Source: a virus. Taken from it: a stretch of 64,000 bases of DNA. Below the pieces are notes generated by a model that was given only the letters and a program-made list of their open reading frames with translations, had not been told where the DNA came from and ran no database searches. Shown in pieces: positions 5,343 to 37,207 of this stretch; position 1 is the stretch's first letter; every line of letters starts with the position of its first letter. The stretch is from the IMG/VR virus record IMGVR_UViG_3300021960_000018. One strand, given 5' to 3'. The position numbers were made by a program, and so were the translations under genes.

Positions 5343-5706
5343 CTTTATAAACCTTCTGTTTCAATAAATTTAATTGTTCTTCACTTAGAAGGGTCAAGGC
5401 TTGTTTGGCTTTTTCATTACTATAGCCATAATATTCCTTGACAACTTCCAAATCACTTTCTTTGACAGGCTTAGCCCATTTTGAGAAGCGCTTCCGCTTT
5501 CTAATAGTATTTATAAAAAAATGAAATTGAAGTTTTTTATCAAGGTGATGGTATTGGTTCATCTCATTAGCGAAAAGAACCGTATCAGGAAAATAACTTA
5601 GCGATCTATTGATCATGAACGGGATATATGATTTCTCAGTGATATCATCTACCATGATATCCTTTTTGGTCATATTAATAGAATTTAGGTAATCATAAGG
5701 ATTCAT
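5329..5706 (-). CDS. gp62: Clamp loader small subunit gp62
   Basis: PFMINRSLS, RKRFSKW, VKEYYGYS; synteny with regA and gp44. Confidence 0.93.
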   Translation of the reverse strand: MNPYDYLNSINMTKKDIMVDDITEKSYIPFMINRSLSYFPDTVLFANEMNQYHHLDKKLQFHFFINTIRKRKRFSKWAKPVKESDLEVVKEYYGYSNEKAKQALTLLSEEQLNLLKQKVYKGGRK

Positions 5707-5912
5707 TTAGCCGTCCATAATCTATCTAGCACAAAAAACCATACCGCGTTTAGTAATGGTTCTACTATAGCATCCGTCAAAGCAATATAAAACGGTGCGC
5801 CAGTGAAATACATAACACAAGCTGCAGCAATTAAAAAGTGTCCAATAGTATATATGCCGGTCCGCAGTAAAGTGCCTTTTAAAGTATTATAAGATTTTGT
5901 AAATTCACTCAT
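5703..5912 (-). CDS. Small membrane protein, DUF2061-like
   Basis: Two hydrophobic segments, VWFFVLDRLW end. Confidence 0.6.
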   Translation of the reverse strand: MSEFTKSYNTLKGTLLRTGIYTIGHFLIAAACVMYFTGAPFYIALTDAIVEPLLNAVWFFVLDRLWTAK

Positions 5913-6511
5913 TAGAATGGGATTTCATCAATTAGAAGTCGTGACACATATTGAATACGCATTACATCCATAACTACATCATGTCTAGGATCATGGGCAA
6001 TAAATTTGGATTCAAGCCCATCAGGAATAAACTTATCACTAATATCTTGCCCCCAAGTCATTCCATTCAATAGACTTTTAGTATCACGAATAACCCACCA
6101 CTTATGTGGCATAGGATCTCCAAACTGGGAACAAATATACTGAACAAATACCGGATCAAACGTATTGTTACGAGTAAAAGCCATATCTACATCAGATGAA
6201 GTATTGGATACAAACCAACTATATAGTTCCGAGATATCAACATCATCGGGCGTTGGTGTTAGCTGCTTTTGGGCTTCTGGACCTTGATTCTTCCACCAAT
6301 TCAAAGTGTCAGTACAGATAGTTCGACCATATTTCTTTACCTGTGATTCTACATCAAACTTGAGGAATTGTACATCCCCAATTAGTTCATCCCACTCATA
6401 TGCTTTACCATGCATAAGACGGTTCATATCAAAGTTAAGAAGTGCAATTGATACTATCACACCTCGATGCTGATCTTGGCTCAGCGTTTCAATATCATAA
6501 ATGATAGCCAT
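5912..6511 (-). CDS. dexA: 3'-5' exonuclease DexA-like (DEDDh); start probably 6511
   Basis: DIETL, TLNWW, FD, RDTKS, HDPRHD motifs. Confidence 0.85.
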   Translation of the reverse strand: MAIIYDIETLSQDQHRGVIVSIALLNFDMNRLMHGKAYEWDELIGDVQFLKFDVESQVKKYGRTICTDTLNWWKNQGPEAQKQLTPTPDDVDISELYSWFVSNTSSDVDMAFTRNNTFDPVFVQYICSQFGDPMPHKWWVIRDTKSLLNGMTWGQDISDKFIPDGLESKFIAHDPRHDVVMDVMRIQYVSRLLIDEIPF

Positions 6512-29915: not shown

Positions 29916-30386
29916 TTAGATTCCTAGCAGTTTATCCAAATCTTTTACTGCATCGACAAATTCCCCACCAGTACCTTCAAGAAATTCTTTATATTTTAAA
30001 GCTTCTTCGTTCAATAATCCCTGTTGATTTACATGAGGATGTGGGGGATCGTTACAAATAGTTTGGTTAGGATTACGACCATCTGTCATCATCCCCTGAG
30101 ATTGCCAATTTTGCATTTGCTGATGTGCATCTGCTGGATTATTAATAGTTAAAAAATCTACACCAGCTTTCGGAACTTGTGCAACTGGTCCAAAATGTCT
30201 CATCAAATCAACCGCAGATTCAATATGTTTAAGAATCATAAAGCCGGCGATAGCTGCTTTGTTATTCTGGTGTCTACTCAATTCTCCAAATTTTTGAATA
30301 GTATCACTAATTAGTTCTACTACTTCAAGCGGAAGAACTTGATTTTCAAAATCTTCATCTTCCAAATTTTCATTTTCTTCAGCCAT
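29916..30386 (-). CDS. Hypothetical protein
   Basis: 156 aa, tightly packed in operon. Confidence 0.65.
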   Translation of the reverse strand: MAEENENLEDEDFENQVLPLEVVELISDTIQKFGELSRHQNNKAAIAGFMILKHIESAVDLMRHFGPVAQVPKAGVDFLTINNPADAHQQMQNWQSQGMMTDGRNPNQTICNDPPHPHVNQQGLLNEEALKYKEFLEGTGGEFVDAVKDLDKLLGI

Positions 30387-31275
30387 TCAAGACTTCCCCT
30401 TCTTTAATAAAATGGTCAAATGGTAACATATTTTCATCATTTCCCAATGTAGCAAAAGTTTCAGCAGCGTAATAAGTTTTTCTAGAATGATTACCCGTAC
30501 AACCATCACAAGTATCACAGAAAAATGAACATATAGGATGTTCTAATTTACCGGTATTCCACAGTTCTCTTAATTTATCTGCTTGTGCCTTTACTACTTC
30601 TTTTTGTTCTTCATCTAAATATTCTACGATTGATGTAATAACCCTTTTTGGATTAAACGCCTTTTGAATACGTAAAATATCTGGAGCAAAATAATGATAA
30701 TTATGCTGCTGAATAGTATAACGAATTCTAAAGTTAATAGGTAAACCTGCTAATAATTTACAAGCTTCAATCACATCAGTAGAAGATTCTTTTCCACTTC
30801 TATATATTCTATCTTTATTACCTACGCCGTCGTATGAAATATCCCAAGAGGATCTTTGATTAATCTCTGGATGGGCGGCAATATAATTTTTAAATTCCTC
30901 GAAAAATTTAGGTTTGGTCCAACGAATTCCATTTGACACTACATTAAAATGAACATTAGATTTCTTTCTAGTAGCATATTCCATAGACCAGCATAAATTT
31001 TCCCATTCAAGAGTTACTTCACCACCAAACATAACAAATAAAGTTTGGGATTCCATTGGTTCATTATCAATAGCTTTATCAATAGCAGCCTTTAGTTTGG
31101 CCCGGGTCATAATCTGTTTAGGCTGACCTTCTAATACCTCATAACAATATGTGCATGCAAGATTACATTGATTCGTAAAATATAAAACGTTTACTGCAGT
31201 ATCAGGAACTTCTTTATCATTTTTATGTTTATTATCGTAATAAATTTCATCCTGAATTTTCGGGGCGTTTGACAC
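30379..31275 (-). CDS. Radical SAM enzyme with short Cys-rich C-terminus
   Basis: CNLACTYC, FGGE, ISYDG; C-terminal CSFFCDTCDGC. Confidence 0.9.
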   Translation of the reverse strand: MSNAPKIQDEIYYDNKHKNDKEVPDTAVNVLYFTNQCNLACTYCYEVLEGQPKQIMTRAKLKAAIDKAIDNEPMESQTLFVMFGGEVTLEWENLCWSMEYATRKKSNVHFNVVSNGIRWTKPKFFEEFKNYIAAHPEINQRSSWDISYDGVGNKDRIYRSGKESSTDVIEACKLLAGLPINFRIRYTIQQHNYHYFAPDILRIQKAFNPKRVITSIVEYLDEEQKEVVKAQADKLRELWNTGKLEHPICSFFCDTCDGCTGNHSRKTYYAAETFATLGNDENMLPFDHFIKEGEVLNG

Positions 31276-31552
31276 CTTTTAAAGCCTCCGACATATTTGT
31301 TACAAATTCAGTGAAATCAATTTGATAATCATATAGATGGTTTTGAATTACTTCTTCATCTTTAATATACGTAATATCGACTCGAGCTAATTTTTTGGAT
31401 GCCACTCGATTTTGTAAATCTTGAGCCAGTTTTTCAGCAGACATAATCTTACTAGCATCATCCTCTGATATGCTATTTATCAGCTGCTTTGTACTCTGTA
31501 CAAGATCGATAACTTCTTTCTTAAGAATTGGTACAGGTAGATCAGGTCTCAT
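31247..31552 (-). CDS. Hypothetical protein between radical SAM genes
   Basis: 101 aa, overlaps both neighbours. Confidence 0.6.
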   Translation of the reverse strand: MRPDLPVPILKKEVIDLVQSTKQLINSISEDDASKIMSAEKLAQDLQNRVASKKLARVDITYIKDEEVIQNHLYDYQIDFTEFVTNMSEALKGVKRPENSG

Positions 31553-32634
31553 CCCATGCTCCTCATTAGATTTCTAACATAACCCTGGAATGCAGGTTCA
31601 TATTTACATTCTCTTAATAATCTCATTGCTTGTTCATTAATCATATGAAATAACTCGCATACAGAATCGACTGGCGCATTGTTATTATTAATCTGTGAAT
31701 AGGTACAACCCATATTACAAACTTGACGAAGGCGACATGTATCGCACTTTTTATGGTTTAAGTTTGATAATGCATTTTGCCAATATTCATAATCGTACGT
31801 AGCACCATCCATTGGCATAAGCTTTTTAGATGCGAAGCGAGCACATGGATAAAATTTTCCCTCTGGTACTAGAACCGCACCGGAATAACCTGCAAAGCAA
31901 CCGAATGGTCTTTTACCTTTTGCAAGACCGATAGTCATATCCTGTAATGCAAGAGATAAGAATCCAACCGAAACGTTTCTTCCATCTTTAAAATATTGGA
32001 TGGTTCTATCGGTTAATTTAATTAGTTCCTGATAGAATGTTCTAAGATGATCTTCTCTCCAAACATTATCACGAACAATACAGAAATCTGGATTCCATAC
32101 ACCCCAATCAACCAAGAATTCTAAATTCTCGGTCATTGTTCCCGCATTACCGGGATAGATCATAACTTTACAACCGGATCTACCATGCTTAAGAACAAGA
32201 TCTTTTTTGGCTTCATAGATCTCCATAATATCGTTAAACCCTTCATTCGCTTTATGGTTACGAATTAAAGGTCTTGACTCATTTGATCCAATGCCGTCAA
32301 AGCTCCAAGAGATTGAGATTTCATTATCTTCAATAAATTGGCTTTTATACTCATCGATCATAGTCATATTAGTAATAATAACTAGATGTTTACATTTAGG
32401 ATCACTTTTAAAATATTTAGTAGCATGCTCAATTAATTCCCAATTAAGCATGGGTTCTCCACCAAAGAATGATACTGCATATTCATCATTATTACTTCTA
32501 CGGATTAATTCCTGTAATTCATCTACGGAATTATCAAAAGTCTCTTTAGTAAGAAATGTCGGTTTATTCACAACATAGCAATAAGGACAAGCAAGGTTAC
32601 ATTGTTCCGTTGTAGATAATTCTAATGTAAACAT
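31549..32634 (-). CDS. Radical SAM/SPASM peptide maturase-like enzyme
   Basis: CNLACPYC, FFGGEP, SFDG; SPASM CFAG...YPC...CDTC..VCNMGC...C. Confidence 0.93.
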   Translation of the reverse strand: MFTLELSTTEQCNLACPYCYVVNKPTFLTKETFDNSVDELQELIRRSNNDEYAVSFFGGEPMLNWELIEHATKYFKSDPKCKHLVIITNMTMIDEYKSQFIEDNEISISWSFDGIGSNESRPLIRNHKANEGFNDIMEIYEAKKDLVLKHGRSGCKVMIYPGNAGTMTENLEFLVDWGVWNPDFCIVRDNVWREDHLRTFYQELIKLTDRTIQYFKDGRNVSVGFLSLALQDMTIGLAKGKRPFGCFAGYSGAVLVPEGKFYPCARFASKKLMPMDGATYDYEYWQNALSNLNHKKCDTCRLRQVCNMGCTYSQINNNNAPVDSVCELFHMINEQAMRLLRECKYEPAFQGYVRNLMRSMG

Positions 32635-33921
32635 TTATTCCCCCGGAATCACAAATTCTTTTTTAGCACTAATGCTAGATTTAACTTCTGCAGGAATCAT
32701 TACGTGTTTTTTATTCGGAGAAGATTTCTGAACAGTACGTTCTTGAATATATCTAGGATCAGTTGCTTCTACTTCTACAAACTGATAAGTTGTTTGCGGA
32801 ATGGCCATCGGTTGTCCAGTAGGTCTTGCTGCCATCACCGCATTAATAATAGGCGTAGCGGTTTTAAATACTGAACACATGCCGGTATTAGCTGGGTTAT
32901 CCTGCCAAGCTGTACCATATCCTTTTTCTTTTTTAGCAGATTTCTCATAAGAAGAAGCTGGGCATTTTAGACAGAATGGGCTTGAGCAACTATTGCACCA
33001 GACCTCTGTATTTTTATTAAAGTCATCCAGATAGCTTTTATATTTTGCGGACATATCTTTAATGACTTCATTTAGATCTTCTTTCATTACATTTCCTAAA
33101 GCGTGATCGCTTTGGTTCCTGTACATACACCCGTGACAGGGATAACTCTGACCATCAAGATCAATAGAGATAACGTCGATACCTGCAGAACAGTTTGCTC
33201 TCGATTGTCTAAACCAACCGAAAGTAGTAAGTCGCATATTATTATCTAAAATGTGCCGCCCGATTTTAAGTAAGGAAACTTTTAAATCACTTAACCACTC
33301 TGCGCGATCTTCTTTCGACGCAGTAGAGTGAACGTCCGGTGTAGGCATATAATCTTCGCCAACTGATTGAAAGTCGAGGAAGGCTTCATACATATATTTA
33401 AAATTATGCCCTGATAAGGTTGGCTTAAGAGAAGCGCTGATCCCATTATCTTTTAACCATAAGAAATAATCTTTTACATTCGCAGAATATTTAGTAGAAA
33501 CACCGCCTGTAGTCAAACGCTCTTTACTATTAATTGGCTCACCGTCATAAGAAATCTGGATATGAAGCCTTGGCTGACGAGTTCTTTTAGGATGTTTCAT
33601 AAACTCATCGCGAAGCCATAGCAACTCTTTTTGGTATTTCTTAATATAAACCCCGTTTGTATAGAACATAAATGTTACTCTACGGTCATCCATAAGACCC
33701 TTCATAACATCCATACAAAGTTTCATATTCATCATGGGTTCACCGCCCCAGAAGTAAATGTTAATGTCATTATCATCTACTCCGCTGATCTTTTCGATAA
33801 GATCCCCAGCGCTTAATTCAGTATGTTGCTGAAAAGCAGAAGATAAACCGCAGGCGTCGCCTTCAGAACAATAGGTACACTTTAAGTTACATTTACTTGT
33901 TGTGTTGATTTCTATATGCAA
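32635..33921 (-). CDS. Radical SAM/SPASM peptide maturase-like enzyme
   Basis: CNLKCTYC, FWGGEP, ISYDG; SPASM CSAG...YPCHGC...CNSC...CLKC...C. Confidence 0.93.
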   Translation of the reverse strand: MHIEINTTSKCNLKCTYCSEGDACGLSSAFQQHTELSAGDLIEKISGVDDNDINIYFWGGEPMMNMKLCMDVMKGLMDDRRVTFMFYTNGVYIKKYQKELLWLRDEFMKHPKRTRQPRLHIQISYDGEPINSKERLTTGGVSTKYSANVKDYFLWLKDNGISASLKPTLSGHNFKYMYEAFLDFQSVGEDYMPTPDVHSTASKEDRAEWLSDLKVSLLKIGRHILDNNMRLTTFGWFRQSRANCSAGIDVISIDLDGQSYPCHGCMYRNQSDHALGNVMKEDLNEVIKDMSAKYKSYLDDFNKNTEVWCNSCSSPFCLKCPASSYEKSAKKEKGYGTAWQDNPANTGMCSVFKTATPIINAVMAARPTGQPMAIPQTTYQFVEVEATDPRYIQERTVQKSSPNKKHVMIPAEVKSSISAKKEFVIPGE

Positions 33922-34216
33922 GTTTAATCTCCTCTAACTCACGTTTTAAACTTAGAACTTCTTGTCTAAGTTCTTGATTGGCTTTTAATGTTAATACCGC
34001 CAATCCTCGATGATCGACTCTTTTAGTACCATCACTATCTATCCATATTAAAAGAGGATCTACATTTTCTAATTCATGTGCTAGTACACCGATTTCTTCG
34101 TGTCTCGGTCTAAAAGGCGAATCTATTTTATAACTATATTTGTAAATTCCAACAGTAGATAATCTATCCGCCCATTCCATATTTTTCAAACTCTCTTGTT
34201 TTCCATTCAATTCCAT
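33893..34216 (-). CDS. Stand-alone peptidase S74/intramolecular chaperone domain lacking its N-terminal SD-x-x-x-K motif
   Basis: YKYSYK...IGVLAHELE..P.L...DG.KRVD...L..L.LKA.QEL + coiled coil. Confidence 0.75.
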   Translation of the reverse strand: MELNGKQESLKNMEWADRLSTVGIYKYSYKIDSPFRPRHEEIGVLAHELENVDPLLIWIDSDGTKRVDHRGLAVLTLKANQELRQEVLSLKRELEEIKLAYRNQHNK

Positions 34217-34550
34217 TATCAGTTAGAAATTGTTCAACTTCGCTTCGAGTGACCCCGTCATATTTTAAAGTATAGGTATAACTTCTATTTTTCCACATAC
34301 AACATTCAGCAGCATAATTAAAAGTACCGGGCATAGGCTTTCGAGTAGTATTTTCTTTTTTACTCATTATAATAAGAAAGTTATTTGTAACGATCTTTGC
34401 TCCATACTTATTCCATTCTGAAATATCTGGTAATGGTGTTTCTGGATCTACTTCTATTACCATCCCAGGTTTTAAAAAGCCTCTAACTTCTGTAAGAGCT
34501 AATTGATTAATACCCTTATCCGAAACTAATGTCATTATAGATCCCCCCAA
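34164..34550 (-). CDS. Hypothetical protein
   Basis: 128 aa in operon, no motif recognised. Confidence 0.6.
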   Translation of the reverse strand: MGGSIMTLVSDKGINQLALTEVRGFLKPGMVIEVDPETPLPDISEWNKYGAKIVTNNFLIIMSKKENTTRKPMPGTFNYAAECCMWKNRSYTYTLKYDGVTRSEVEQFLTDNGIEWKTREFEKYGMGG

Positions 34551-35095
34551 AATTCATCCCATGAGGCTTTATCATCTGGACCGTGGGGTCTACAGTATTT
34601 ACCATTAATTAATTCGCCTTCTCCTTTGAAATTGGGATAGATGTTTGCAACTAAATGAGGAGGAAAATCATAATCTTCGATTCTAATAATGCCCCACATA
34701 GAGCTCGGGAACATTTCCCCACCTAAATAAATCGCAGGATATGTCGTATGTCTACCAATGTGATCAGGATCGGTACGATTATATAAAGGCATGTCACCAA
34801 TTTTTAGACTGGATGGATCAGCGCCTTCGATAAAATCAAATCCGAAAGCATTAAAATCTTCTAATAGTAATGCCATGTTCGATGCACCGGCAATAGCATA
34901 ATGTTCAACATATTTGTTATCTAATAAATCTTGCCAAGCATTATTTTCAGGATATATTCTTACTAAAAGTTCAGCTAAAAAATATACGGGCATACCCACG
35001 GGCGATCCCGCTACTTCCATTCTCAGTGCTCTATCTAAAGATTTTTTCCAGCATTCTAAAATAATAGAAGCCTTTTCCTGTTTCGTCCAGCTCAT
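34535..35095 (-). CDS. Hypothetical protein, weak NlpC/P60-like pattern
   Basis: LKIGD...H...AIYLG pattern, no recognisable catalytic Cys motif. Confidence 0.5.
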   Translation of the reverse strand: MSWTKQEKASIILECWKKSLDRALRMEVAGSPVGMPVYFLAELLVRIYPENNAWQDLLDNKYVEHYAIAGASNMALLLEDFNAFGFDFIEGADPSSLKIGDMPLYNRTDPDHIGRHTTYPAIYLGGEMFPSSMWGIIRIEDYDFPPHLVANIYPNFKGEGELINGKYCRPHGPDDKASWDEFWGDL

Positions 35096-35463
35096 TTATT
35101 CTTTTCACTCCATATCCAAAGAATGCTATAAAGATCGCTAAGAGGATTATATAATTGCCGGGATCTTCCACCTGCAGTATTTTTAGAAGTATCTGGTTTA
35201 TTCTTAATAGTTGTCATAAATTCCGAAAGAACCCGGGAAACATTGTCAGCTCCAAACCTTTCTGTTAACGGACCTTCAATATATTGAACCCCACTTTTAT
35301 AAAATGCTGGGGTATCAAATTCCACTCCGTCTACTTCCTGCCCACAGATATTATCGTTAGTTAAATATCCCCACATCATAAACAATAATAAATCATCACT
35401 ATTAGAAACTTCTGAAAAATTTCTTTTAAAAAAATCACTATTTTCAATATGTTTTACTAACAT
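35092..35463 (-). CDS. Hypothetical protein
   Basis: 123 aa, ATGA overlap with next gene. Confidence 0.6.
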   Translation of the reverse strand: MLVKHIENSDFFKRNFSEVSNSDDLLLFMMWGYLTNDNICGQEVDGVEFDTPAFYKSGVQYIEGPLTERFGADNVSRVLSEFMTTIKNKPDTSKNTAGGRSRQLYNPLSDLYSILWIWSEKNK

Positions 35464-35470
35464 CTTTCAC

Positions 35471-36004
35471 TTAGTTCCTTCCATCTAGTCCTTTAATATT
35501 TTCTTTGACAACAGGATCAGAGCAGCACTTGTTGCAGTTACAGGTACAGAAGTTACAATTGCACGTGCAGAAGTTACAGTTACAAGTGCAGAAGTTACAG
35601 TTACAAGTGCAGAAGTTACAATTGCATGTACAAAAATTACAGTTACAAGTACAGAAGTTACAGTTACAAGTGCAGAAGTTACAGTTACATAGACATGCTG
35701 CTGACCAAGTATTCAATTGAGTAGTTAACTGATTAAATTCAGTAGCTTGAATTACTGCCGATGCTGTAGAATAGGGGAAAGTACCAATTCTAGCTGTCAA
35801 ATCTGCTGCAAGATTATTTAAACGAGCAGCAGTAATTGCATTTCCTGCAGAAGCAGCAGGCCAGTTAGTACTTGTAGTAGAAGCACCTCTACGTGTTAAT
35901 TCATTGATAGCTTGATCCCGAATATTATTCCAATCAACGGCATCAATAAGAGTGCCGGCAGCAACTGTTGAATATTGGTTATTAGCAGGACAGGGCGATC
36001 CCAT
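35471..36004 (-). CDS. Cys-rich repeat protein: fibre-like N-terminus plus (CNCNFCT)x7; putative radical SAM substrate
   Basis: Seven exact CNCNFCT heptads, then CNCNKCC-SDPVVKENIK; 27 Cys in 177 aa. Confidence 0.85.
   Translation of the reverse strand: MGSPCPANNQYSTVAAGTLIDAVDWNNIRDQAINELTRRGASTTSTNWPAASAGNAITAARLNNLAADLTARIGTFPYSTASAVIQATEFNQLTTQLNTWSAACLCNCNFCTCNCNFCTCNCNFCTCNCNFCTCNCNFCTCNCNFCTCNCNFCTCNCNKCCSDPVVKENIKGLDGRN
35522..35689. repeat. Coding tandem repeat, 8 x 21 nt
   Basis: The seven full units differ only at synonymous positions of the minus-strand frame; the eighth encodes CNCNKCC. Confidence 0.95.
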
Positions 36005-36007
36005 GGT

Positions 36008-37207
36008 TTATACCTTCACTTCTACTTGACCTTCACCACTATTTATAGCGACGCCAACGGTTAGTCCTGGGAGATAGGTTTCTGATGCAATTCCAAATCC
36101 AGACCCACCTGCAATAATATAATTGCCCTTTTTAGCCAAACCATGAATTTTTACAGGAATTCTACCTTTAAGAGCAATAAACGGCCAAAGTGGATCATTT
36201 TGCTTTTCATCATCATCGTTCATTCTTAATCCAGGATTTTCGGAAACAACACCTGCAAGAGGAAGCCCAACTTGGTATAGTGTGACTTCATTTTTGCCAC
36301 CAATACCTAAAACCGTACCAATAGGATATTCTTTATCTGCATGATATCTTTCTGCGAGGTCAGCAAAGTTAGCTGACGTTGCATTACCAGAGAAAGTGCT
36401 ACAAGTTAAAGTATTACCTGTAAGCGTCATTTGAACCGTACCACCGGTTCCAGCATTATTCTCGGTATCACTATGCGATCCGCTAGTAAACCAACTAAAT
36501 CTGCTGGCGGATCTGAAGTATAAAGTGTTTGATTGAACGCCCAAACCGTAGCTAGAAGCATAAAGATCTACCATCTGTCTAGTTGCAGACCCGAATGATA
36601 TTTTAGAAGAAGTACCGAATTGCATATCGGTACCAGTAAACGCATCAGTAGTATCACTACGAAGGAATGATAGACTGTCAATGCCATCAAGTGTATCTGC
36701 GTTTGATGGTCCTGGAGGCCCAACTGGTCCGGTAGGTCCCGTAGGACCTTCGGGACCGGTAGGACCAGTCGGTCCGGTTGATCCAGTGTCCCCGACTGGA
36801 ATAGTAAAGTCGAATACAGCAGCCGTTGATGTACCAGAGTTTGTAACTGATACCGAACCACCCGCTGGACCTGTAGTAACAGTTCCAACAGCAATTGTCC
36901 CTGTTGGCCCGGTAGGTCCATTAGGTCCATTAGGACCAGTTGGTCCGGTTAAACCTCTAATCCCCCGAGTTAACCCAAAGTTAAATGTCGCAGCGGTTGT
37001 ATCACCAGAATTTGTTACAGTCGGCGTTTGGTCGGAATCTAATAGAGATACAGTGCCAATAGTAATTGTTGCAGCAGTACCCTTTGGAGCATCTTTAAAT
37101 GACGTGGCTTTCCAAATACCAGGATCAGAGTAATACGTATAGGTATTACCATTTATAGTATAAACCTGTCCATTCGTAGGACTGCCAGGAAAATTTAATC
37201 TAGCCAT
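36008..37207 (-). CDS. Collagen-like tail fibre protein with C-terminal ADLAERY-type chaperone domain
   Basis: [12 protein letters not shown]-terminus; GPT/GPN triplets; FADLAERY...GVVS.NP...[10 protein letters not shown]. Confidence 0.85.

Follow-up and report, generated by a model that had tools for sequence, protein, structure and literature searches.

The S74 (CIMCD) domain is the textbook example of a chaperone that works in cis alone and then releases itself by self-cleavage. In endoNF the catalytic dyad is Ser911/Lys916. Cleavage in K1F and in T5 also requires an Arg that the neighbouring chain supplies from its preceding fibre domain. In T5 pb1 the Thr1263-Ser1264 bond is cut by a dyad of Ser1264 and Lys1269, a loop (1265-1276) comes ahead of the first hairpin, which starts at 1277, and the protein depends on Arg/Asp ‘folding sensor’ residues upstream of the scissile Ser (PMC4690869). 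The CIMCD proteins closest to the locus described here (K1F endosialidase, T5 pb1, phi29 gp12 and S16 gp37; PF13884) carry the domain at the C-terminal end of a fibre-like virion protein encoded in a late operon, with an SDxxxKxNI motif of S-x4-K spacing directly behind the fibre part, and in all of these respects our locus resembles them. They are single, cis-fused, self-releasing polypeptides whose passenger is a beta-helix or receptor-binding tip, whereas here the dyad sits on the substrate, a Cys-heptad repeat protein encoded beside radical SAM genes, and the remainder of the domain (the body, predicted to have the same fold) is a separate gene 1.3 kb off.

Two other groups of phage proteins invite comparison. 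The chaperone families of T4 gp38/gp57A, Mu/P2 Tfa and Alteromonas phage V22 are unrelated to S74 and rebuild no protease site with a substrate peptide. As we propose for the body, these are small proteins encoded near a fibre gene that aid trimerisation and are often missing from the mature fibre (PMC7289586, PMC10579305). The Cys-repeat partner has relatives in CPT_0180 and CPt10_1891 of the radical-SAM-rich Campylobacter phages CP220 and CPt10, which belong to phrog_26958 and have CDCNYCT heptads encoded by a 21-bp repeat (PMC2853527); they differ from our protein in their length of 534 aa, in a long Cys-rich extension at the C-terminus, and in lacking both an SD stub and a neighbouring S74 body. 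Our literature search found no account of a split S74 domain or of a Cys-heptad/radical SAM virion system.

Two halves of an S74 domain in a marine myovirus

The locus belongs to the complete 157-kb genome of an uncultured marine T4-like myovirus from IMG/VR, of which the window, the whole stretch of 64,000 nucleotides that was analysed, is a part. The two S74 halves are minus-strand genes 1.3 kb apart with three ORFs (A, B and C) in between, arranged as follows:

35471..36004, minus strand: gene for the Cys-heptad-repeat virion protein, 177 aa (ORF and translation; phrog_26958, E=2.5e-24)
35474..35521, minus strand: S74 N-terminal stub, SDPVVKENIKGLDGRN (HMM gain, rank controls, S/D/K/I invariance, mapping to T5 pb1)
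35092..35463, minus strand: ORF A, 123 aa, no family match; first of three lineage-specific genes between the S74 halves
34535..35095, minus strand: ORF B, 186 aa, no family match; second of the three intervening ORFs
34164..34535, minus strand: ORF C, 123 aa from the ATG at 34535, no family match (gene calls in variant contigs)
33893..34180, minus strand: stand-alone S74 body, 95 aa (MEWADRL...; PF13884 positions 16-54; own HMM 17-100; AF2 pLDDT 92.3)
30379..33921, minus strand: radical SAM maturase cassette that overlaps the body stop and follows immediately downstream (Pfam), with the four members below
32635-33921, minus strand: radical SAM/SPASM protein, 428 aa (Pfam)
31549-32634, minus strand: radical SAM protein, 361 aa (Pfam)
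31247-31552, minus strand: 101-aa protein, conserved across related loci
30379-31275, minus strand: radical SAM protein, 298 aa (Pfam)

By its phrog_26958 match, its C-x-C-x-x-C-x heptads behind an N-terminal domain and the adjoining radical SAM genes, the 177-aa protein is a member of the Cys-heptad family. It is built of the N-terminal domain, (CNCNFCT)x8 and the stub, and ends in ...CNCNKCC-SDPVVKENIKGLDGRN followed by a stop, with the Ser codon at 35521-35519. The first-pass annotation had read this C-terminus as the SD start of an S74 domain, and the reading held: the stub matches S74 positions 1-12, including the catalytic Ser and Lys, and ranks first among 1,434 ORF C-termini genome-wide. 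It carries Ser162 and Lys167 in the S-x4-K spacing of the S74 dyad together with the N-terminal ‘winding loop’ segment, and maps onto Ser1264/Lys1269 and loop 1265-1276 of T5 pb1. With a stop codon 16 residues after the Ser, the S74 domain is not fused whole in cis. Natural variants of the protein have 4, 7, 8 or 9 heptads, and their stub is invariant except for one K-to-R change.

The same annotation had taken ORF 33893-34216 for the rest of the domain without the SD motif, which is what we find. The ORF matches Pfam Peptidase_S74 (PF13884) at positions 16-54 of 58 only (17.3 bits, E=0.0058, below the 22-bit cut-off), the N-terminal ~15 positions being absent, and is the sole S74 match in the whole 157-kb genome. 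Gene callers pick the inner ATG at 34180 (95 aa) over an alternative ATG at 34216 that would give 107 aa; the body starts at S74 position ~16 and has no Ser/Lys dyad on its own polypeptide. Its AF2 model (pLDDT 92.3; elements H2-7, E13-18, E26-31, H34-40 and H57-94) predicts a short helix and then a beta-hairpin, with the GVLAHE motif and, at the C-terminal end, a long coiled-coil helix. As modelled, the body shows the S74/ICA fold, in which a helix and beta-hairpin lead into a long helix that makes a trimeric coiled coil. The top Foldseek matches are the MyRF ICA 7dc3 (prob 1.0, E=5e-4, TMq 0.68), the endoNF chaperone 3gw6 (0.97) and phi29 3gud (0.89). A profile built from stand-alone bodies only matches 8jov, 3gud and 7dc3 at E 1e-5 to 1e-7 (7dc3 at 1e-5) and aligns to 3gud from chain residue 16 on. 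Although the MyRF/Ndt80-type ICA is thus the best structural match and is also found by the profile, MyRF is a eukaryotic membrane-bound transcription factor with its domain in cis and has nothing to do with phage fibres or a split architecture. In its split state the body evolves under purifying selection (dN/dS 0.06-0.16).

As the first-pass annotation had expected of a truly divided domain, the joined pieces scored better than the stand-alone ORF. Against an HMM of 57 canonical S74 domains, which had been collected as hits to the body itself, the body alone reached 79.8 bits over HMM positions 17-100, and stub plus body 86.8-89.8 bits over the full length, positions 1-100, a gain of 7-10 bits. 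In rank controls the stub also came out on top of the 541 six-frame ORF C-termini of the window (mean 80.05, sd 0.79), and the 16-mer ending in ...SDPVVKENIKGL on top of its 55,943 16-mers. The pattern SD...K.[ND]I occurs a single time across six frames of the 157 kb; since a few internal 12-mers of the genome equal the stub score, the motif alone is weak, and the weight of the stub lies in its C-terminal placement right behind the repeat. At the level of sequence, these comparisons establish stub and body as complementary halves of one S74 domain.

Homologues, stand-alone bodies and the place of the split

Looking for fused homologues, we found that 12 of 77 Cys-repeat proteins have a fused S74 domain and 36 end in a stub. 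In the 12 fused proteins (P0011, P0024, P0033, P0046, P0061 and others) the Cys-repeat/SD junction runs on into a complete S74 domain; they share with our protein the Cys heptads, an SD junction (...CNCNY-SD) and the radical SAM neighbourhood, but have S74 in cis, in a short variant ending ...MVDYSKLP that lacks the C-terminal coiled-coil helix. An HMM made from these 12 domains was dropped as a yardstick because it gave 7-11 bits for everything (7-10 bits for the window's pieces), the domains being short and without the coiled coil. The closest N-terminal relatives, of the MGSPCP... type (e.g. P0003), have neither stub nor body, which indicates that S74 is dispensable in some family members. 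The same radical SAM cassette also adjoins the Cys-repeat genes of L003, L007, L008, L013, L017 and other lineages, with radical SAM neighbours across L003-L018.

Conservation of the SD stub, on which the idea of a split also hung, is strict. Stub length is exactly 12 aa in 35 of the 36 stub proteins, with the consensus SDxxxKxxIx[YF][LMIF] followed by a stop, and an alignment of 20 stub proteins, 35-45% identical to ours, shows no variation at S, D, K and I. The one exception in length is the window's stub of 16 aa, in which residues 1-12 are the counterpart of the homologues' 12-aa stub and four more follow; it departs from the consensus in having CC-SD instead of NY-SD and GLDGRN instead of [YF][LM].

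A stand-alone body lies 0-5 kb from the stub gene in 9 of 14 stub lineages, compared with 0 of 10 non-stub lineages (Fisher p=0.002); beside or near the stub gene, such bodies occur in L013/14, L017, L018, L030, L034, L038, L042 and the P0028 contig. They begin at the same S74 position as the window's body and have their own ATG and RBS (AAGGAGG in L018), in a frame that varies relative to the upstream gene. Where stub and body genes are adjacent, the body follows 0-32 nt past the TAA in frame +1 or +2 without consistency; in three further lineages it is placed one gene or 5 kb away, and in two lineages a pair of stub-bearing paralogues precedes a single body. At least 335 protein clusters from metagenomes match the stand-alone-body profile at E<=1e-5, and most of the related stand-alone bodies carry PF13884 matches. 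The top 110 short proteins of the profile search are all Met-initiated, and 102 of them start at HMM position >=14; as a control, ordinary fibre S74 domains, the only type returned by an IMG/VR locus search with the body alignment A3, all start at position 1.

Several searches came back empty or returned ordinary fibres. The IMG/VR related-locus search gave no match with the window's body and ordinary fibre only with the P0164 body, and in tblastn against cultured phages the stand-alone bodies matched only the C-terminal domains of ordinary fibres; the Cys-repeat protein had no tblastn match there, probably owing to the low-complexity filter. No body was detected in five stub lineages (L011/12, L016, L029, L037 and L033), including two ~200-kb fragments, the sequence searched being 21-66% complete records or 14-20 kb flanks, and a scan of G001-G003 with PF13884 and the A3 profile found none.

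The three intervening ORFs have no Pfam, PHROG, NCBIfam or PADLOC match and no homologue in any related locus compared. They are tightly packed, with overlapping start and stop codons at the A/B (ATGA) and B/C (TAATG) junctions, and the ATG of the body falls within ORF C, 17 nt from its end. Their dN/dS values are 0.09 for ORF A (against L019), 0.13 for ORF B and 0.05-0.11 for ORF C. ORF B has a weak language-model lead (ESM Atlas 0.92-0.94) to NlpC/P60- or CHAP-like proteins, and its single-sequence AF2 model was unusable (pLDDT 41). An intron or ribozyme was considered and rejected, as positions 33500-36100 gave no Rfam match at E<=1 and there is no non-coding space between the ORFs. Around the three-gene insert, a search for mobile-element signatures yielded only short chance repeats, and promoter- and terminator-like sites were at shuffled expectation.

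The first-pass annotation had suggested, as an alternative, that three genes entered an ancestral fusion. Insertion agrees with the lineage-specificity of the ORFs; the fusion as its target does not agree with the split, which is old, widespread and at the same position everywhere. ORFs A-C most likely entered a locus whose two S74 genes were separate by then. Because the T5 pb1 loop spans 1265-1276 and its first hairpin begins at 1277, the natural split point is the loop/hairpin boundary of S74.

A probable chaperone in trans, and other readings

Since the split recurs in many uncultured phages, the divided chaperone probably acts in trans. The recurrent stand-alone bodies beside stub genes, their own ATG and RBS, the varied frames and the cases of two stubs to one body support this reading strongly, if indirectly. 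The Cys-repeat protein is the presumed substrate of both the radical SAM enzymes and the split chaperone. We consider it reasonably likely that the locus encodes a naturally split S74 (endosialidase-type) chaperone and self-cleaving peptidase that trimerises and cuts the Cys-repeat chains. The substrate would keep the first 12 (+4) S74 residues, with the nucleophile Ser162, Lys167 and the loop that winds round the trimer axis, and the folded body, a hairpin and trimeric coiled-coil helix, would come from the separate 95-aa gene of the same late operon. The body would trimerise via its C-terminal helix. Through fragment complementation the trimer would then bind the SD...K..I..L stubs, one from each of three substrate chains, and so bring the Cys-repeat chains into register to assemble as a trimer and, perhaps, to be cross-linked by the radical SAM enzymes. 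The rebuilt Ser-Lys site would cleave the Cys161-Ser162 bond, freeing the mature protein and a body with the 16-aa peptide. As a separate gene, the body would be free to sit adjacent to its partner, one gene away, 1.3 kb off as here, or 5 kb off, and the two stub genes that accompany a single body in two lineages suggest that one body may serve two substrates.

The catalytic part of this scheme has a competitor, unlikely in our estimate, in which the body docks and nothing is cut: the stub would be a conserved docking peptide, and the body would either assist assembly in trans or stay in the virion for good as an adaptor or cap, the catalytic context having been lost. Co-occurrence and conservation fit binding as well as they fit cleavage, and nothing in the Cys repeat visibly matches the Arg/Asp ‘folding sensor’ residues of T5 pb1 or is identifiable as an equivalent of the cleavage-assisting Arg of T5 and K1F. 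However, Ser, Asp and Lys, strictly invariant in 20 divergent stubs, are the S74 catalytic positions, and such constancy goes beyond the needs of docking.

That the locus is a relic, an ancestral fused S74 broken up, with a 16-aa stub in decay and a downstream ORF that is functionless or repurposed, we hold to be quite improbable. The lack of S74 in the closest N-terminal relatives, the stub lineages without a detectable body and the window body's score under the Pfam cut-off would all suit decay, but 35 other clusters have a stub of one length and motif and invariant catalytic residues, the body has a dN/dS of 0.06-0.16 and a high-confidence predicted fold, and the clusters of stand-alone bodies, at least 335 in number, have a common start position. 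Rejoining of the halves at expression into a fused product, by intron, trans-splicing, programmed frameshift or readthrough, can hardly be entertained: in L013 the ORFs do overlap by one base (TAATG) and the body frame is open for 11 codons upstream, but in the window the halves stand 1.3 kb apart with three close-packed genes, all under purifying selection, between them, the frames of adjacent pairs are inconsistent and their bodies have their own RBS, and in three other lineages the body is one gene or 5 kb distant.

Returning to a split domain that works in trans, we see about an even chance that it represents a widespread intermolecular form of S74, in which a free body of ~90-100 aa recognises the 12-aa SDxxxKxxIx[YF][LM] C-terminal tag of radical-SAM-associated Cys-heptad proteins, rebuilds the Ser-Lys site, trimerises the substrate and removes the tag. 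Such a body would be a detachable chaperone-protease, able to act on several substrates and to be relocated within the genome.

Implications for S74 domains and Cys-heptad virion proteins

If true, this intermolecular form of S74 would be one not described before. For annotation, ‘hypothetical proteins’ of ~90 aa that match PF13884 in part, of which there are hundreds, become readable as stand-alone S74 bodies, and their partners recognisable by a C-terminal SD...K..I stub. The 12-residue tag and its ~90-residue partner are also a possible tool, testable as a system for trimerisation and tag removal. The conserved two-gene S74 domain is a natural experiment that shows where the domain can be divided and implies that it can function in trans. 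Through it the chaperone is connected with Cys-heptad virion proteins whose genes adjoin those of several radical SAM enzymes, a hint as to how these chains may get into register for modification and assembly.

Stub, body and the late operon

The Cys-repeat protein consists of an N-terminal domain, eight CNCNFCT heptads and the ending ...CNCNKCC-SDPVVKENIKGLDGRN, followed directly by the stop codon. The first-pass annotation had read this ending as the SD start of a Peptidase_S74 (PF13884) domain (here the stub, with Ser162 and Lys167) and a separate ORF as the rest of that domain (here the body). Both genes lie in a minus-strand late operon of a complete IMG/VR virus record (157,283 bp, with direct terminal repeats), of which the window is a part. 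The tail sheath of this virus shares ~42% identity with its counterparts in Pelagibacter phage Mosig, Methylophilales phage Melnitz and Prochlorococcus phage P-HM1, and we therefore regard it as an uncultured marine T4-like myovirus.

Gene order in the late operon
(-), structural protein, 970 aa
(-), fibre, 542 aa
36008-37207 (-), collagen-like protein with a weakly matched Peptidase_G2 cleavage domain, 399 aa
35471-36004 (-), Cys-repeat protein, 177 aa
(-), three small ORFs (A, B and C)
33893-34216 (-), S74-like ORF, partial Pfam match
(-), three radical SAM genes; a conserved 101-aa protein is encoded between genes two and three

Against Pfam Peptidase_S74, ORF 33893-34216 aligns only with positions 16-54 of the 58-position profile, and its 17.3 bits fall short of the 22-bit cut-off; gene callers mostly choose its inner ATG (34180), giving 95 aa. 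When an HMM was built from 57 canonical S74 domains, each taken from the SD...K motif to the domain end, the body alone scored 79.8 bits (positions 17-100) and the joined stub and body 86.8-89.8 bits (positions 1-100); because this HMM derives from hits to the body, what can be interpreted is solely the gain from the stub, and not how high the scores are. In joining controls, the stub came top both among the window's 541 six-frame ORF C-termini (mean 80.05, sd 0.79) and among 1,434 C-termini genome-wide, and the 16-mer ending ...SDPVVKENIKGL ranked first of the window's 55,943 16-mers. The pattern SD...K.[ND]I occurs once in six frames of the whole genome, and the body is the only S74 match there. 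Scores equal to the stub's are also reached by some internal 12-mers in other parts of the genome, so the motif alone is weak and its weight comes from its position at a C-terminus directly after the repeat. The two pieces are thus homologous to complementary parts of S74, which confirms what the first-pass annotation had observed.

Several neighbouring genes deserve mention. The 399-aa protein just upstream of the Cys-repeat gene has collagen G-x-y repeats and weakly matches Peptidase_G2 (the IMC autoproteolytic cleavage domain; E=2.5e-4, below cut-off), so that two distinct kinds of self-cleaving chaperone may serve adjacent fibre genes. The ~100-aa protein encoded between radical SAM genes two and three (31247-31552, minus strand) also occurs in distant loci (L007 6435-6740, L008 2863-3162 and L013 8379-8687; E 6e-9 to 1e-3), matches no known family, and may be a conserved accessory of a maturase cassette, for example a recognition or carrier component. 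A 181-aa 2OG-Fe(II) oxygenase (PF13640; 28977-29522, minus strand; 5385-5930 in variant contig L020) ends the radical SAM cluster and is directly followed by T4 gp13/gp14 neck genes; the relative L003 has an Asp/Arg hydroxylase-type gene in a similar place. Related uncultured phages have very large radical SAM gene sets: around the Cys-repeat genes of L007, L008, L013 and L018, up to 8-9 such genes lie within 13-19 kb, together with glycosyltransferase and sugar-nucleotide genes. Campylobacter phages CP220/CPt10 have genome-wide totals of 11-12 radical SAM proteins (PMC2853527).

Stubs and stand-alone bodies in related phages

The 77 Cys-repeat protein homologues (97-310 aa) fall into three C-terminal classes. 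Twelve are fused, ...CNCNY-SD running on into a complete S74 (SDRRLKxNIxF...GVMAQE...MVDY) of a short variant with no coiled-coil helix at its end. Another 36, including the window's protein, stop soon after the Ser, and the remaining 29, among them those most closely related to the window's protein in their N-terminal part, have no SD motif. The stub is exactly 12 residues long in the 35 other stub proteins (for example SDVTTKNNIVYM, SDERLKTDIEYL, SDYRLKINIEYL and SDIRLKKDIKEI) and 16 in the window's. When 20 stub-bearing proteins that share 35-45% identity with the window's are aligned, Ser162, Asp163, Lys167 and Ile170 are invariant, so the catalytic dyad is conserved on the client. The SD...K..I stub is therefore no scar confined to this genome: it recurs, is conserved and has precise limits.

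Fused forms in clusters P0011, P0024, P0033, P0046 and P0061 end ...MVDYSKLP, unlike all stand-alone bodies and canonical S74 domains, which have the C-terminal coiled-coil helix. Locus L039 (5809-7248) has a third arrangement: a stub-less Cys-repeat protein (ending NYESY) is directly followed by a different fibre, 223 aa long, that ends in a complete S74 (SS-x-RYK form).

Stand-alone bodies beside stub genes (locus; stub; body; position)
L013/L014; SDVTTKENIVYM; 87 aa; overlaps the stub-gene stop (TAATG)
L018; SDEKTKENIEYL; 103 aa; 13 nt after the stub gene, behind AAGGAGG
L030, L038, L042; 12-aa stubs; ~90-96 aa; 11-32 nt downstream
L017, P0028 contig; two tandem stub genes; one body, 97-99 aa; after the second stub gene
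L034; SDRRLKTEIEYM; 89 aa; ~5 kb downstream
Window; SDPVVKENIKGLDGRN; 95 aa; 1.3 kb downstream, three genes between

All bodies begin at a common S74 position, the helix xxLxxIKKLKPxxYxYK (alignment A3, of the stand-alone bodies). Linkage of the two genes is conserved: a body was found in 9 of 14 stub lineages versus none of 10 fused or stub-less lineages (Fisher p=0.002, on the available sequence). No body was seen in L011/12, L016, L029, L037 or L033, a real but soft caveat because the IMG/VR records are an estimated 21-66% complete and L011 and L016 were examined as 14-20 kb loci. Tandem Cys-repeat paralogues occur in L017 (10001-11484), the P0028 contig, L033 (5168-6336) and L029 (5308-6456); in the first two both carry SD stubs and have one downstream body in common, and the L029 pair has a stub on just one member.

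The split form is widespread in uncultured phages. The A3 profile matched at least 335 protein clusters at E<=1e-5 (proteins of 47-181 aa). Of the 120 best, 110 measure at most 125 aa. Every one of these 110 has an initial Met, 102 start no earlier than canonical-HMM position 14 (median 16), and the SD...K motif is present in just 2-3. As a control, 24 IMG/VR loci from the same alignment proved to encode ordinary fibres (roughly 200-2,000 aa) in which S74 starts at HMM position 1, with two marginal exceptions. In cultured-phage records the bodies match only C-terminal domains of annotated tail fibres, and we found no description of the split form in the literature searched.

Fold of the body and position of the split

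By its modelled fold the body is a real S74/ICA domain. Its AlphaFold2 model (42-sequence alignment; pLDDT 92.3) opens with a short helix and a beta-hairpin, followed by another helix, two short strands and, at the C-terminus, a helix of 38 residues. The best Foldseek PDB match is the MyRF ICA domain (7dc3; E=5e-4, TMq 0.68), with the endosialidase intramolecular chaperone (3gw6, prob 0.97) and the phi29 gp12 chaperone (3gud, prob 0.89) also found. A profile from ten stand-alone bodies only matches 8jov (1.7e-7), 3gud (3.2e-6, from chain residue 16 onward), 7dc3 (1.1e-5) and 3gw6 (0.0097).

In T5 pb1, Ser1264 is both scissile and nucleophilic; it is activated by Lys1269, and cleavage takes place at the Thr1263-Ser1264 bond. 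The loop made up of residues 1265-1276 is wound around the other chains' loops, with the first hairpin (1277-1322) tucked beneath (PMC4690869). The 12-residue stub is equivalent to pb1 1264-1275 and the bodies begin where the pb1 hairpin begins. The split thus falls at a structural boundary of S74: the client keeps the dyad and loop, and the separate protein has all the folding parts.

Selection, history and proposed action of the separate body

Variant contigs from other samples (L019-L023) keep the window's gene order (Cys-repeat gene, ORFs A-C, body, radical SAM genes). Compared with the window's copy, their bodies carry 10-19 synonymous and 6-7 non-synonymous changes (dN/dS 0.06-0.16, indicating purifying selection; 0.05-0.13 for ORFs A-C and 0.01-0.03 for the first radical SAM gene), and the stub changes at one position only (K to R). 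Heptad copy number varies among variants P0174-P0178 and the window (35522-35689, minus strand), with 4, 7, 8 or 9 copies giving proteins of 149, 170, 177 or 184 aa, while the flanking domains and S74 stub are nearly unchanged. Selection maintains the split state.

ORFs A (123 aa), B (186 aa) and C (123 aa) match nothing in Pfam, PHROG, NCBIfam or PADLOC, and none of the related loci has a homologue of them; around this three-gene insert no flanking repeats were found, and promoter or terminator signals were not enriched. The first-pass annotation had suggested insertion into an ancestral fusion. This is better put as insertion into a domain whose halves had already parted: the split position is common to distant lineages, so the simplest history would have the three genes landing between two already separate genes. 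The same event may have added four residues (DGRN) to the window's stub. For ORF B (34535-35095, minus strand), whose structure model was unusable, an ESM Atlas feature search led to NlpC/P60- or CHAP-like clusters (score 0.92-0.94), a language-model lead to a candidate papain-like peptidase adjoining a protein awaiting processing.

A trans-acting chaperone had also been proposed; comparative evidence (the conserved stub, the linked bodies) makes action of the body in trans on the stub-bearing client a well supported reading of these sequences. Somewhat favoured overall is a scheme in which the body would trimerise, the trimer would capture three stubs by fragment complementation and help the Cys-repeat chains to assemble in register, and the Ser-Lys site would then cut off the stub. 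A body that binds the stub with no cleavage would share the first steps, and we consider it unlikely, the dyad being invariant on the client. That the split S74 is an evolutionary relic is less likely again; stub and body are conserved as described, and what speaks for a relic is that five stub lineages yielded no body. Rejoining of the halves at the RNA or translation level is very improbable: adjacent bodies lie inconsistently in frame +1 or +2 and have their own start codons, which disfavours programmed frameshifting, and no intron-like RNA was detected in the window's stub-body interval.

Trans action of the body would represent a new, intermolecular form of an 'intramolecular' chaperone, and the split S74 is linked to an unstudied virion protein family associated with radical SAM enzymes.
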